Assembly: GCA_963755915.1 (NCBI GenBank)
Contig: CAVWLP010000002.1
Coordinates: forward strand, 256,001-320,000
From: an uncultured Phycisphaerales bacterium
Lineage (GTDB): Bacteria > Planctomycetota > Phycisphaerae > Tepidisphaerales > Tepidisphaeraceae
DNA length: 64,000 nucleotides
Reading direction: 5' to 3'
The notes under the pieces are model-generated. The model saw only the letters and a program-made list of their open reading frames with translations, was not told the DNA's origin and did no database searches. This document shows positions 20,404-49,165 of this stretch, piece after piece (the stretch's first letter is position 1; the number at the start of each line of letters is the position of its first letter). A program made the position numbers and the translations under genes.

Positions 20404-21543
20404 TTACGCTGCCAGTTTCAAGCCCAGATCCTGCGCTTTGACCCGGCCGGTTTTGATCCGCCACAGGTCCACCGCCAGTTGCCGCGCCAAGGCCACCGCG
20501 GCTTTCTTGCGCATGGCTCTGGCTCCGGGGTTCTCGAAGACCTGCTTCCAGCGCTTCAGACGAAAATACTCCGGCTGGAACTTGGGCAGCAGCCACGCCA
20601 GTTCCACCAGCACCGTGCGCAGTCGGCGGTTGCCATGTTTGTCGATCGACAGATTCATCCGGCTCTGGCCTGAGGAGGATTCTCCAGGGCAAAGCCCGGT
20701 GTAGCTGGCGATCTGCCGGCGGTTCTGGAAGCGATTCCAGTCGACGATCTCACGATCCAGCAGCTCATAGCTGAGGTGTCCGATTCCCTTGATCCGGGCC
20801 GATTCGCGGGACTTGGCCTCCGCGCAGAGCTGGCGGGTCAGTTCATCTCGCTTCTGGTCCATCATCTCTACCATCTCCAGGTCGCGGGCAAGCTCCTTGC
20901 GGATCGGTTCGATCAGTTCTGAGCCGTAGAGTTCTTCCAGCTTTTTCAGCAGCGGCTCACACGCCAGCGGCTCCCACCATTTTCCCGGGCGATGGATGCC
21001 GAGGCTGTGCAGCAGGCTTCGTCCACGGGCGATCCAGCGCTGCCGTTCCTTTCGGTAGGTGTTGCGCTCGCGCCCCAGGCGGCGGTGGATCTCCTGGGCC
21101 ACCGTGGGGACACGCACCAGACGCAGCGCCGTCGTGTTGCCGGCGAGATGCCGGTCCAGACGCGAGAGCAGTTCGGTGGCGTCGATCTTGTCGTTGACTC
21201 TCTTGCGGCCGCGGGACAGACGTTCGGGGGCACAGACCAGGCACTCTACGCCCAGGGCGGTGGCTTCGCGGTGCAACGCGAAGCCGTAGGGACCGGCTTC
21301 GTAGACCATCACCACGCGTTTGGCCAGCGTCAGCTGCTTTTTGAGAAACTCGATGAAGACGGCCGGCGAGAGTTTTTGGGCCGGTTGAATCCCCTGATGA
21401 TCGACCATCCGTGCGAAGGTATATTGCTGGCTGTGGGTATCCACGCCGAGTTTGATCACCTCGTGCGACTGATTGGGCTTCGAGACTCTCTCCCCTCGAA
21501 CTTGGGAGGCCTTGCGGCTACCTTTAGAAGAATTGTGTTTCAT
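20404..21543 (-). CDS. IS110 DEDD recombinase/transposase
   Basis: LGVDTH, VYEAGPYG, NDKIDA, ASYTGLCPGESSSG, KHGNRRLR, AVALARQL. Confidence 0.95.
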   Translation of the reverse strand: MKHNSSKGSRKASQVRGERVSKPNQSHEVIKLGVDTHSQQYTFARMVDHQGIQPAQKLSPAVFIEFLKKQLTLAKRVVMVYEAGPYGFALHREATALGVECLVCAPERLSRGRKRVNDKIDATELLSRLDRHLAGNTTALRLVRVPTVAQEIHRRLGRERNTYRKERQRWIARGRSLLHSLGIHRPGKWWEPLACEPLLKKLEELYGSELIEPIRKELARDLEMVEMMDQKRDELTRQLCAEAKSRESARIKGIGHLSYELLDREIVDWNRFQNRRQIASYTGLCPGESSSGQSRMNLSIDKHGNRRLRTVLVELAWLLPKFQPEYFRLKRWKQVFENPGARAMRKKAAVALARQLAVDLWRIKTGRVKAQDLGLKLAA

Positions 21544-45312: not shown

Positions 45313-46050
45313 CTAGAGATTGCGCTGGCCGAGGAAATGGTTGGCGAGAGAGGCGAGACCGGTGACGAGGTGGGCATGTTCATCGGCACTGAAGTTGTCG
45401 ATGGAGGCCATGCCGTAGCCTTCGATTTCGGGCTGGATCGACGACACTGCATCGGCTTCTCGCCGGGCGTCCTGGAGTTCCTGCAATTCGATATTGCGGG
45501 CTTTGTCGAGGCCTCCGCCGCGGATGAATTCGATGATCTGGCGGATTTCCTCGCGGTCGAGCCATATACCGTGGCGGCCGCAGACGTTGATGATGATGCC
45601 GGAGCGGCCGGCGTAGTTCATGCGGTTCATGATGTTGCCGCATTGCGGGCATTTGAGATAGCGGACGCTGGGATCGAAGGCAACGGGCGGCGGGACGCGT
45701 AAACCGGTCGCGGCCTGCTGGGCCTCGGCTGTGGAACAAATGTGCTCGAAGTTAGAGACGTCGATCCACAGGCCGCCGCAGCGCATGCACTCTTCCAGCG
45801 GCGTGGTCGCGACCTCGACGGCGGTGAGCTTTTCATTGCAGCGCGGGCAGGAGTGAGTGGTTGCCTGGCCTTGGGCGATGTTCTGAGCGACGGCGCCGCA
45901 GTGGGGGCAGAATTTTGAGCCGGCGAACATCATGCCCAGGCATTTCGGGCAGGCGACGGTTTGGAGCAGGGCGTGGCAGTATTGGCACTGAGTGGAATCG
46001 GAGGAGACGGCGGAGCCGCAGTTGGGGCAGTTGAGGGTGCCGGCTTGCAT
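45313..46050 (-). CDS. Multi zinc-ribbon protein (double zinc ribbon plus zf-TFIIB-like domains)
   Basis: Repeated CxxC pairs; CGGLWID, HGIWLDREE. Confidence 0.85.
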   Translation of the reverse strand: MQAGTLNCPNCGSAVSSDSTQCQYCHALLQTVACPKCLGMMFAGSKFCPHCGAVAQNIAQGQATTHSCPRCNEKLTAVEVATTPLEECMRCGGLWIDVSNFEHICSTAEAQQAATGLRVPPPVAFDPSVRYLKCPQCGNIMNRMNYAGRSGIIINVCGRHGIWLDREEIRQIIEFIRGGGLDKARNIELQELQDARREADAVSSIQPEIEGYGMASIDNFSADEHAHLVTGLASLANHFLGQRNL

Positions 46051-46105
46051 GGGTGCGAGTATAACCGCGGAGGTGGGTTCTTTAAATTTCTCTTGTCTTT
46101 GTCTT

Positions 46106-46154
46106 TCTTGGCGCTCTTGGCGTCTTGGCGGTTACAGGATTTTTAACCGCCAAG
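46106..46154. repeat. Left part of the CTTGGCG-heptamer hairpin repeat interrupted by IS110 element 2
   Basis: TCTTGGCGCTCTTGGCGTCTTGGCGGTTA..TAACCGCCAAG, completed by ACGCCAAGAGCCAAGA at 47640-47655. Confidence 0.85.
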
Positions 46155-46266
46155 AAACTATGAAGCCGAGCCTTTCTCGGGACGTGAACGGGGTCAAAAT
46201 GCCCCAAGTATGAACGAGCGTACCGCGTAGGTCGCTCAAACGTCTTTTTTGAGAAAGGACTCGGCA

Positions 46267-47310
46267 ATGCGAATTCTCGCTTTGGACCTGGGAAAGAACA
46301 AGAGCGTTTTTGTGGATTATGTCACCGGCGGTGGAGAAAGAACGTTCGGCAAGATCGGCACCAATGCCCACGAGGTGCAAAAACTACTCGAGCGGGTGCG
46401 TCCGGATCGACTGGTCATCGAGGCCGGTCCGGCGGCAGGATGGGTTTGTGATCTGGCGGAGCGGAACAATGTTCCCGTCCAGGTGGCCAATGGCAACGAT
46501 GAACGCTGGCGCTGGAAGACGGTGAAGGAGAAGAGTGATCGTAAAGACGCGCTGAAGATGGCGGCGATGTCGGAGATGGATTCGCTGCCGACGGTGCACG
46601 TGCCCAAGGCATCGGTTCGGCAGTGGCGTTCATTGATTGAATACAGACACGGCCTGGTGGATCGCCGCACGGCGCTCAAGAACTCGATCCGATCAATCTA
46701 CGAGCGGCAGGGTTTGTATTTGCCCTCGGCGACCAAGGCGTGGACGAAAGCGCGACTGGAGGAAATGAGGAAGGAAGCAGCGGCCGCATCGGCGGAAGAT
46801 CTGTGGCTGTTTCAGATCGGTTGTGAGGTGGCGCAACTGGAGCACCTGGAGAAGCAGATCGAAACTGTCGAAAGCAAGCTTCAGGAGTTGGGCCAGGCCA
46901 ACAAAGCGGTGAAACGATTGCAGGAGGTGCCCGGCGTTGGTCCGCGGCTGAGCGAGGCGGTGGCGGTGATCATTGATGATCCCAGGCGATTCAAGAATGC
47001 ACGTCAGGTGGGATGTTACGTGGGTCTGACGCCGCGGCGCTGGCAGAGCGGCGACAGCGATCGCCAGGGGCGGATCAGCAAGGCAGGCAACGCGCTGCTG
47101 CGGGAGTTGCTGGTGGAGGTGGCGTGGCTGGGGGTTCATCGCAATACGTGGATGAAGGACGTGTACGAGAGGGTTCTACGTGACAGCGAGAAGCGCAAGA
47201 AGATCGCGATTGTTGCGGTAGCCAGGAGATTACTGGTGAAGCTGTGGGCGATGCTGCGGGACGGAACCCGATGGAGAGAACCCCAGCGATCGCTGACGGC
47301 GGCCACTTGA
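46267..47310 (+). CDS. IS110 DEDD recombinase/transposase
   Basis: ALDLGK, VIEAG, KSDRKDA, VPGVGP, YVGLTPRRWQSG, ISKAGN, AVARRL. Confidence 0.96.
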   Translation: MRILALDLGKNKSVFVDYVTGGGERTFGKIGTNAHEVQKLLERVRPDRLVIEAGPAAGWVCDLAERNNVPVQVANGNDERWRWKTVKEKSDRKDALKMAAMSEMDSLPTVHVPKASVRQWRSLIEYRHGLVDRRTALKNSIRSIYERQGLYLPSATKAWTKARLEEMRKEAAAASAEDLWLFQIGCEVAQLEHLEKQIETVESKLQELGQANKAVKRLQEVPGVGPRLSEAVAVIIDDPRRFKNARQVGCYVGLTPRRWQSGDSDRQGRISKAGNALLRELLVEVAWLGVHRNTWMKDVYERVLRDSEKRKKIAIVAVARRLLVKLWAMLRDGTRWREPQRSLTAAT

Positions 47311-47620
47311 AAATCGAAAAGGCGATGACTGTCCCGACAAGTCGGTACAGGCGATGGAGTATCTCCCCTCCGGAAGACACCGTGTCAGAAAGCCGTTGTC
47401 TTCTGTGCAGGGGATTGAGTAGAGTTGAAGTGAAGTGGAATTGACGCGTTCGTGCAGGTTGAATGAGCAAGGCCAGACCCCGGTTGGCGTCTTAAGCTTC
47501 AAAGCTTGCCGCTAAGAATAGGGCTGGCCATTTGTACAGTTGAATAGGCCCGCCGCCAGGCGAGAGCACTGAATAGAAGGCTCACCCAATCGACCGCATG
47601 AGCGATCAACGCCCCTTGAC
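47311..47620 (+). ncRNA. Predicted bridge/seek RNA of IS110 element 2 (boundaries approximate)
   Basis: Target loop 47471-47529 with guides TTGGCGTCTT and CCGCTAAGA; donor-like ATAGAAG at 47573-47579. Confidence 0.72.
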
Positions 47621-47682
47621 AAGGCTCGGCTCATAGAAGACGCCAAGAGCCAAGAAAATGCAGGAGGGTGAGATTTAACGCG

Positions 47683-49165
47683 CTAGCGTAATCCAAGTTC
47701 GTCGAGCGCGGCGCCTGCGCCGGAGAGATGGTCTGGATTCATTTCGGAATAGTTGCGGCAGAGGACTACGCCGTCGGCGCCGCCTTTGAAGGCGGCGATG
47801 GTGGCGGCTTTTACGCCTTCGGCGGTGGACTTGCTCGCGCCGGGGGGGACGGGGACGTCGATGTCGATTCCCGGCCAGACGGAGACACCCCGGCTCTTCA
47901 CGTCGTCCACCGCCCTGGCGGTTTCGCGCTGGACGTAATCGGGAGAGAGGCCGGTGGCCATGACCTTGTCGAAAGGGGCCTCGTTGTAATCGAGGAAGCG
48001 ATAGAGCGCGCCCAGCGCTTCGGGCTTGGAAAAATCTCCCAGGATATTTTGGGTGGCGCTTTCGGTGAAGCTGTGAATCCGCTCGCCGGCGGCGTTGTTG
48101 TAGAGGACGGGTTTAATAAAATCGGAGAATTCGGCGATCCGCGTATAATCCATCTCGGCGCGATGCAGGGGGCTGAAGGAGACGTTGTGCCAGATGTGCC
48201 AGCCGATGGGGATTTGGGGCTTGATCGACTTGACCAGCTTGTAGATCTGCTTCTGCAAGTCTTCGCGGCTGGTGATCCAGAGGTTTTCCCAGGCGAGGAG
48301 CTCGGGGTAGTTGAGGAGAAGGCGGAAGAACTGGACGAAATAGCCGTCGCGGGGGCGGGTGTTGGCGCGGCCCTGGCGGACGAATTTTTCGAGCTCGGCA
48401 AAGCCGCGGCGGGCGCGGTCGGGGTCGATGCCGGTGTCCTTGGCGCGCTTTACGCAGAATTCGCAGAAGCAGGTGGCTTTGCCGGGGTCGGCGGACTGGC
48501 CGTGGGCGTAGGCGCCGAGAGCGTTGAAGAAACCGCCCTGGCGTTCGGAGGACCACATGACGCCGTCGATGTCGTAGGAGCGAGTAAGGTCTTCGATGAG
48601 GCCTAGCACGAAGCCGAGATAGAGGGGGTTGTTGTAGCACGGGCCGGCGGGGTGGGAGAGGGCGCGGCGGCCGTGGAAGTCGATCTCGTAGAGTTTTTCC
48701 CAGGCGGCGGAGGGGGCGTGGTCGTGATCTTCGAGGACCCAGGCGAAGGTTTTCATGCCGTGCTTTTTGGCGACGGGGATGATGCGGGCCATCACGTCGG
48801 TCTCGCCGAAATCGGGGGCACGCATGTCGGCATAGGTGAGGGAGGTCTGCTGGTAATATTGCATGTGGGGGATGGCGAAGTTTCCGCCGTGGAATCCGGC
48901 GGCGGGCATGCCGGCAGTGATGTGGGCGTAGGTGTAAATGAAGGGGAAGAGGGTGTTGACGCCGCCGCGATGATTCAAGTCGTCGAAGAGGTGGTCGAGG
49001 TTGCCTGTGGCGAGGGGTGGGAGTCCCATTTGGATTCCGATGGTCGGGGGCTTGCGCGGGCGGGGTTGATTGGGCGTTGGTTTCTACGCCCGAGACCGCG
49101 GCGACGCCGATCGCGGCGGCGGCTTTCAATACATCGCGGCGCGTCCAGGGGGTAATAGGCGCCAT
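47683..49165 (-). CDS. Tat-exported TIM-barrel glycoside hydrolase-like protein (apparent frameshift near 49050)
   Basis: TRRDVLK Tat motif; PCYNNP, YDIDGVMW, CFCEFC, WPGIDID. Confidence 0.7.

Follow-up and report, generated by a model that had tools for sequence, protein, structure and literature searches.

The window, i.e., the entire 64,000-nucleotide stretch of DNA analyzed here, contains a 1485-bp insertion sequence whose sole long open reading frame codes for a DEDD transposase/recombinase, with 112 nucleotides of non-coding DNA upstream of the gene and 329 nucleotides downstream of it (Table 1). Re-reading of the window sequence gives AAACTATGAAGCCGAGCC as the left end and GGCTCGGCTCATAGAAG as the right end, such that the element starts with AAACTATG at position 46155 and finishes with CATAGAAG at position 47639. 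In silico excision of this segment joins TAACCGCCAAG to ACGCCAAGAG and restores the 3' arm of a palindromic hairpin. These limits and the restored site had been proposed in a preliminary description of this DNA, and the window sequence agrees with it at every coordinate. As judged from uninterrupted sites, the two junctions share only AAGA, with no target duplication beyond the shared core, and the core dinucleotide is ambiguous from the window copy alone. It was taken as AG because the right end in relatives reads CATAG+N and their left end AAACTATG, the core being the two nucleotides that precede AAACTATG and follow CATAG+N, which here are AG.

Table 1. Features of the insertion sequence, its predicted guide RNA and the repeat that it interrupts (window positions)
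Feature	Position	Strand	Basis or remark
Palindromic repeat, left arm	46104-46134	+	sequence, fold
Palindromic repeat, loop	46135-46143	+	sequence, fold
Palindromic repeat, right arm, proximal part TAACCGCCAAG	46144-46154	+	last two bases AG are the left core copy
IS1111-type insertion sequence, 1485 bp	46155..47639	+	nine genomic copies, junctions identical in all nine
Left subterminal inverted repeat CTATGAAGCCGAGCCTT	46158..46174	+	against 47621-47636 reverse-complemented: 16 identities, one 1-nt indel
DEDD transposase/recombinase gene, 347 aa	46267..47310	+	Pfam PF01548 and PF02371, NCBIfam NF033542
Predicted bridge/seek RNA core, target loop and donor loop	47468..47583	+	covariance model, 119.1 bits, E 1.9e-29, + strand only
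Closing stem P1, 5' strand GGCCAG.CCC(CG)	47471..47482	+	pairs with 47519-47529
Right-target guide TTGGCGTCTT	47484..47493	+	exact 10-nt reverse complement of AAGACGCCAA (core and right flank)
Inner hairpin P2, AAGCT-UCAA-AGCTT	47494..47507	+	compensatory changes in 6/6 pairs
Left-target guide CCGCTAAGA	47509..47517	+	equals CCGCCAAGA (left flank and core) except T for C
Closing stem P1, 3' strand (TA)GGGCTGGCC	47519..47529	+	pairs with 47471-47482
Donor-loop hairpin P3	47545..47571	+	compensatory changes in 3/4 pairs of helix 3
Left-donor guide ATAGAAG	47573..47579	+	same sense as right end (ATAG), A and core AG
TTGACA, -35-like hexamer, putative function	47616..47621	+	sequence
Right subterminal inverted repeat AAGGCTCGGCTCATAG	47621..47636	+	sequence
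Palindromic repeat, right arm, distal part ACGCCAAGAGCCAAGAAA (right target flank)	47640..47657	+	sequence

The genome searched, a metagenome assembly of three contigs (81% complete, 8% contamination), carries nine near-identical copies of the element, all printed at 100% identity and two of them with slightly lower bit scores. The insertion point TAACCGCCAAG|ACGCCAAGAG is common to all nine, the left flanks ending in TAACCGCCAAG and the right flanks beginning with ACGCCAAGA; the CCGCCA-AG-ACGCCAA site that had been predicted for further copies is thus present at every one of them.

The transposase matches DEDD_Tnp_IS110 (PF01548, E 2.9e-10) and Transposase_20 (PF02371, E 2e-24), both above the curated cut-offs, and reaches 216.6 bits, the cut-off being 140, with the NCBIfam equivalog NF033542, 'IS110 family RNA-guided transposase'. 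Its residues 253-262 read GLTPRRWQSG, and GL-P----S(T)G is the motif named for transposases of the IS1111 family in the available text of PMC11187229. The closest solved structures are the recombinases of ISCro4 (E 3e-18) and IS621 (E 1.3e-16), which align over the C-terminal half only, including GLTPRRWQSG. Of the putative catalytic D-E-D-D residues and conserved Ser, D91/D94 as well as S261 in this motif have counterparts in the alignment to the ISCro4 chain 9t56_A, and D7 and E52 are placed by local motifs only, namely LALDLGK and VIEAG. The features by which the IS1111 subgroup is set apart from IS110 proper, as far as the published descriptions at hand extend, include subterminal inverted repeats of 7-17 bp (PMC11208160), a longer non-coding region downstream of the gene, and a transposase of 330-350 aa (PMC11187229); the window element has the inverted repeats, the longer 3' non-coding region, a 347-aa transposase, and site-specific insertion in which only the core is shared. 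No named insertion sequence close to the element was found, a search of a plasmid collection giving at most 40% identity. Likewise, a literature search that paired IS110 with Planctomycetes or REP returned nothing on this lineage, ISfinder and the supplementary ortholog tables of the papers lying outside this comparison.

The 3' non-coding end folds with the layout stem, loop strand, hairpin, loop strand, stem, followed downstream of P1 by a linker, the P3 hairpin and then AATAGAAGG; with a z-score of -4.0, the fold is better than all of 100 shuffles. The 5' loop strand complements the top strand A-AG-ACGCCAA, and the 3' loop strand is the same as the top strand CCGCC-AAG-A except for U in place of C, so that its pairing with the bottom strand includes a single rU.dG at that base. 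The top-strand and bottom-strand guides overlap at AAGA. In IS1111 seekRNAs, as presented in the available text of Siddiquee et al. 2024 (PMC11187229), the top-strand match likewise lies 5' of the bottom-strand match and the two overlap at the insertion point. The closing stem, the AAGCT/AGCTT inner stem and the two loop strands, all pointed out in the preliminary description, are upheld at 47471-47529, as are its exact reverse complementarity of TTGGCGTCTT to the core plus right flank and its equation of CCGCTAAGA with the left flank plus core with one U-G wobble. Its reading of the system as one with a bridge (seek) RNA is in keeping with the guide order. The guide order, the subterminal inverted repeats, the 3' non-coding region and the transposase length all fit an element of the IS1111 subgroup with a seekRNA/bridge RNA.

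The match by itself should not be overrated: an exact match of at least 10 nucleotides between the 329-nt non-coding end and the 27-nt site, on either strand, occurs in 62 of 5000 dinucleotide shuffles, such that the 10-mer alone is only moderately unlikely and is suggestive, not decisive. What gives the guide match its weight is instead that it lies in a conserved loop and that homologues show covariation. An Rfam scan of 45900-47900 at E-values up to 10 returned chance-level matches only. As a separate observation, the left-target guide has a U (47513) where a perfect match needs C, both in the window clade and in the relative L061. The two window guides can also pair with each other, on account of the target being a direct heptamer repeat, and the U at 47513 turns a G-C into a G-U pair there.

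To assess conservation of this scaffold, a covariance model was seeded with 7 sequences and a hand-given structure, which together with realignment to the model was used since MAFFT alignments misplaced gaps in P1 and P2. The model finds the module on the expected strand in all 7 seeds and at 9 further loci, 8 of which place it downstream of their own transposase gene, the module at the remaining locus (L067) belonging to a neighboring upstream element. Across the 16 homologues, standard pairs occupy 93.9% of the pair cells, as opposed to 22-42% when the 3' partners are slid, and compensatory double changes are seen in 17/21 pairs, values that none of 500 shuffles reach and that come from an alignment fitted to the model, which favors the structure. 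Independently, RNAalifold on the plain MAFFT alignment detects compensatory changes in 7/11 pairs, recovering the inner 11 pairs only. The fold that had been suggested for the 3' end is therefore a conserved one.

Downstream of the target loop, ATAGAAG had been noted to copy the right end of the element plus the core, and the comparison confirms this. On the 3' side of P3, the strand has the form AU(A/G)G + N + core, which is identical to the right end in 13/13 elements with a known right end; the N + core variants are AAG, GAG, AGG, CGG and ATG, and AUGG occurs where the end is CATGG. This covariation speaks for ATAGAAG being a left-donor guide. The P3 pairs themselves are U-G, A-U and G-C in the window and U-G, G-C and G-C in most relatives. 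Alternatively, only the first loop might guide, in the manner of a short seekRNA, with the protein reading the ends via the subterminal inverted repeats and the ATAGAAG match being a by-product of ancestry. This we consider unlikely, in that the N + core match holds through all the above variants in 13/13 elements, AUAG switches to AUGG together with the end, and the segment follows directly on the 3' side of P3, a hairpin conserved through compensatory changes, in a mirror image of the target loop; nucleotides of IS1111 RNAs that bind the donor have also been predicted earlier, going by the available text of PMC11208160. What the alternative can draw upon is the 82-nt RNA of ISEc11, which with only two target matches is described in the available text as sufficient for transposition (PMC11187229), the near-invariance of the AUAG part, which leaves just 3-4 informative positions, and the right-donor guide, for which no consistent candidate was found in the window element and the relatives compared.

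One such candidate, AGUU (47538-47541), situated just 5' of GAAU and proposed to pair with left-end positions 2-5, was rejected because G300 and G344 keep the same left end yet have GUCU. The position does change fittingly in L039 (GGAU with ATCC) and partly in L064. A pairing of AGUUGA with the downstream CCAAUC/UCGAC was likewise unsupported, L064 and L066 differing on the 5' side only. In IS1111 RNAs, the donor-binding bases are often located in a multi-loop, according to the available text of Durrant et al. (PMC11208160).

Returning to the target, the restored site folds as a hairpin of ~30 bp (-51.6 kcal/mol), and the repeat is built of CTTGGCG heptamers. The palindromic repeat offers 22 empty and 9 occupied exact sites and is intergenic at the window copy; the term 'REP' is used here in this sense alone, for a small palindromic intergenic repeat family. 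The empty sites are those at which the 15-mer CCGCCAAGACGCCAA stands uninterrupted, at 22 further places in the genome against ~0.02 expected and, owing to the palindromic nature of the repeat, often on the two strands of a single hairpin. Two registers can be distinguished in the repeat, register 1 being CCGCCAAG|ACGCCAAG and register 2 ACGCCAAG|AGCGCCAAG. Register-2 sites (CGCCAAGAGCGCCAA) number 22 in the genome of the window, and none of them is occupied. Among the occupied sites, 6/9 are full hairpins and 3/9 are solo arms without a partner arm, which indicates that the sequence, and not the hairpin shape, is their common denominator. As an aside, the left arm of the occupied hairpin (46117-46131, - strand) provides a complete and empty target site on the opposite strand, so that the hairpin could accept a second, inverted copy; an intact target on the opposite arm is also seen beside two other copies.

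The sister element (L031), from a MAG labeled Phycisphaerales, has a transposase 91% identical to that of the window element and ~89% identical DNA. Its copies (4/4) are all situated one heptamer further along the same repeat, at GACGCCAAG|AGCGCCAAG. Its 5' guide TTGGCGCTCT is the exact complement of AG+AGCGCCAA, its right flank, and differs from that of the window RNA by TCT>CTC, the same three bases by which the right flanks differ; the two RNAs are otherwise the same. The 3' guide is unchanged, as is to be expected because both left flanks end in CGCCAAG. The sister's genome has 47 matches to the register-1 15-mer, and none of its 4 copies is in register 1. Target specificity is thus reciprocal between the two elements, neither genome showing an insertion in the register of the other element.

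More distant relatives (transposase identity 36-72%), with loci taken from metagenomic contigs and from further genomes in the phylum, keep the scaffold and have other loop sequences, which match their own flanks. For instance, the guide CTTATCCCCT accompanies the flank AG|GGGATAAG in L061, TATTCAATCCT accompanies AGG|ATTGAAT in L062, ACGGGTGCCAT accompanies ATG|GCACCCG in G344, and AGTAGCGACAT accompanies ATG|TCGCTAC in the upstream element of L067, with L038 having a perfect 3' guide CCGCCAAGA for the left flank CCGCCAAG. In a 12 x 12 matrix of 5'-guide/right-flank runs, cognate pairs average 9.1 nt as against 3.0 nt for non-cognate ones, and the cognate 5' guide is strictly best in 10/12 elements, the other two sharing one target. 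Exact matching of 3' guides to left flanks gives a cognate mean of 6.7 nt versus a non-cognate mean of 3.3 nt. The observed sum is reached by 0/100,000 permutations for the 5' guide and by 0/100,000 for the 3' guide, figures that overstate independence, the compared elements being related. These matrices cover the elements with placed cores and known flanks, leaving out L039 and L068-70 (cores not placed), L043 and L065 (without flanks), as well as L059, whose guide and site are the same as those of the window element. Within G344, two variants (L042 versus L047, L051, L055 and L058) carry the 3' guides AGCAGUGA and AACUGUGA, each of which fits its own left flank; the 3' guide, the P2 hairpin and the left flank change together, the 5' guide and right flank remaining constant. 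This constitutes another natural case of retargeting, in this instance on the left. The covariation of guide and target for which homologous ends were to be compared is hence found both in the sister and in the 12-element matrices.

These results bear directly on whether the protein might pick the target by the repeat sequence or the hairpin shape, with the RNA matches being coincidental. Loop sequences vary in step with the flanks across 12 elements with unrelated targets, and the sister distinguishes two registers of one repeat by a three-base change in its guide. Together with the insertions in solo arms, this makes such recognition by the protein highly improbable, even though two-thirds of the occupied sites are full hairpins, a stem-loop contributes to the target choice of ISPpu10 in the available account of that element (10.64898/2026.03.19.712850), and a match of at least 10 nucleotides arises in ~1.2% of shuffles. 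More improbable still is that the matching segments are a captured repeat fragment, i.e., a non-functional recombination relic, which is conceivable for an element that lives inside the repeat and has a further 6-nt sense match, CCGCCA (47553-47558), in the P3 stem; however, capture would give a contiguous, single-sense fragment, whereas here one segment is sense and the other antisense, a conserved hairpin separates them, they overlap in the core bases, and relatives with unrelated targets have theirs at the same scaffold positions.

The fit is not equally close in all relatives. The left-target guide match is weak in L062 (3-4 nt) and L066 (5 nt), and L060 has a right match of only 7 nt with a one-base offset, its left flank being absent from the data. 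The loci L068, L069 and L070 represent one element, with a transposase 44% identical to that of the window element, that has three different flanks on each side and a loose loop fit; either its boundaries may be mis-set or the element may be less specific.

The reading that we favor, with a probability of about 0.88 for the whole of it including guidance by RNA, is that of an active or very recently active element of the IS1111 subgroup of the IS110 family. The DEDD recombinase would be guided by an RNA from the 3' non-coding end with a conserved core at ~47468-47583, in which the two target guides would together specify CCGCC-A-AG-ACGCCAA in the 3' arm of the CTTGGCG-heptamer repeat. The 3' strand of the second loop (47573-47579) would read the element's own right end plus core for donor recognition, and recombination at the AG core would join the excised circle to the target. 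The circle junction is predicted to assemble a promoter (TTGACA, 17 nt, GAAACT) that would drive the transposase gene and the RNA. Of this reading, the site specificity, the guide matches, the covariation of guides with target and donor, and the conserved RNA fold are observed. Expression of the RNA, its association with the transposase, circularization, promoter activity at the junction and the exchange of strands are posited on the model of the published IS1111/IS110 mechanism.

Junction promoters and circles are established for the IS110/IS1111 family. In the window element, TTGACA comes to lie 17 nt from G47639+AAACT (46155-46159) only in an excised circle, and a search of the + strand inside the integrated element gave no sigma-70-like site. 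The same TTGACA hexamer and spacing recur in the relatives L061, L062, L066, G300 and G344. RNA-library contigs from two metatranscriptome runs extend over parts of the element (X9, covering 47270-47474 at 100% identity, and pieces of X20), it being understood that contigs do not show transcription. Runs with the element are from soil and other metagenomes and are kept as contigs; in the contigs of the four sequencing runs examined there was neither a circle junction nor an empty-site joint, which is evidence neither for nor against a circle.

A further property of the guides might concern the base adjoining the core. The base after the donor guide is the first right-flank base in 8/9 lineages, the exception being the window's own clade with a G opposite A, possibly a G.T wobble, and the 3' strand of the target loop is invariably followed by A, which is also the base with which the left end begins. 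It is conceivable, if doubtful, that both bottom-strand guides in this clade extend their reading by one base beyond the core, to include partner DNA. In IS621, the 'handshake' bases are on the top-strand guides, and the one-base extension proposed here would be the mirror image of this, on the bottom-strand guides. If true, the RNAs would be tuned to the product or integrated junctions, e.g., for bottom-strand exchange or excision, and the sisters could partition one repeat into separate registers via three guide bases.

With respect to known systems, the seekRNA elements ISEc11, ISPa11 and ISKpn4, as far as the available text of PMC11187229 describes them, share with the window element the long downstream non-coding region, the subterminal inverted repeats, a transposase of the size given above with the GL-P----S(T)G motif, and the order and overlap of the guides; ISPa11 also targets a REP. 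The natural redirection by guide bases between ISEc11 and ISXne4 reported in the same text parallels that between the window element and L031. However, none of the named insertion sequences compared comes close (40% identity for the best relative on a plasmid), the host lineage and target differ, and of the guides of the sisters described here only the right one differs, their insertion points in the one repeat being 8 bp apart. Further, a donor-reading segment is evident here, whereas the available text of the seekRNA paper stresses target matches only (PMC11187229). The bridge RNA of IS621 is comparable to the predicted RNA of the window element, on the available text of PMC11208160 and PMC11208158, in that a single molecule combines a target loop and a donor loop, each of which reads both DNA strands, in having guides that overlap at a 2-nt core, and in serving a DEDD plus Ser recombinase, the catalytic residues in the window element being candidates. 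Per the same text, it differs in that the RNA of IS621 is located in the 5' (left) end and that of the window element in the 3' end, the strand order in each loop is the reverse, and the IS621 inverted repeats are only 2-3 bp; the similarity of the proteins is limited (E 1.3e-16) and confined to the C-terminal part.

Insertion into a palindromic intergenic repeat is shared with the REP-targeting IS110 elements in the accessible part of Tobes & Pareja 2006 (PMC1525189) and with ISPpu10, for which it is likewise RNA-guided and site-specific according to the available text (10.64898/2026.03.19.712850). In contrast to ISPpu10, which is reported there to need a target stem-loop as a second determinant, 3/9 insertions of the window element being in solo arms implies that the hairpin is not obligatory for it. 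The element is thus a clear new example of the known RNA-guided IS110/IS1111 mechanism, which it leaves unchanged, and not a new mechanism. Its value lies in a well-documented natural instance of targeting by a bridge/seek RNA, from a soil lineage remote from the model hosts, and in the natural experiment that it contains, namely the three-base retargeting between sister elements. Additionally, the 16-locus clade-wide RNA alignment, with its scaffold, guides and donor-reading segment, could seed a covariance model for IS1111-type guide RNAs, and the relatives provide further orthologues for recombinase engineering.

Some observations pertain to the surroundings of this element and its clade. 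Two other types of IS110-family element are present in the genome, one in 6 copies and the other in 4; one copy of the 6-copy type lies in the window at ~20572-20796 (- strand), where the covariance model has no match. Between the transposase gene and the guide RNA of the element studied here, there is a strong hairpin module of ~56 nt at 47350..47405 (+ strand) with the core GGAAGACA...TGTCTTC, which recurs in 43 other places in the genome at ~84-93% identity and has no match among Rfam families. A hairpin of this type sits at the 3' end of an IS21-type IstB gene at L010 and L019 (one locus sampled per top-copy group), and is also found in the non-coding ends of L066, at a different position, and of L060. 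Possibly, it serves as a terminator or RNA-stability module that unrelated insertion sequences share and have exchanged.

On one metagenome contig (L067:1110-1480), two different IS1111-type elements lie ~150 nt apart, the right end and guide RNA of one being followed by the left end of the other type, AATCCATGTAAGCC. Finally, the target of the G300 and G043 elements (L040, L041 and copies), CTAGAGCAGTT-TG-CTCTAC, is also an inverted repeat, such that palindromic targets are recurrent in this IS1111 clade.
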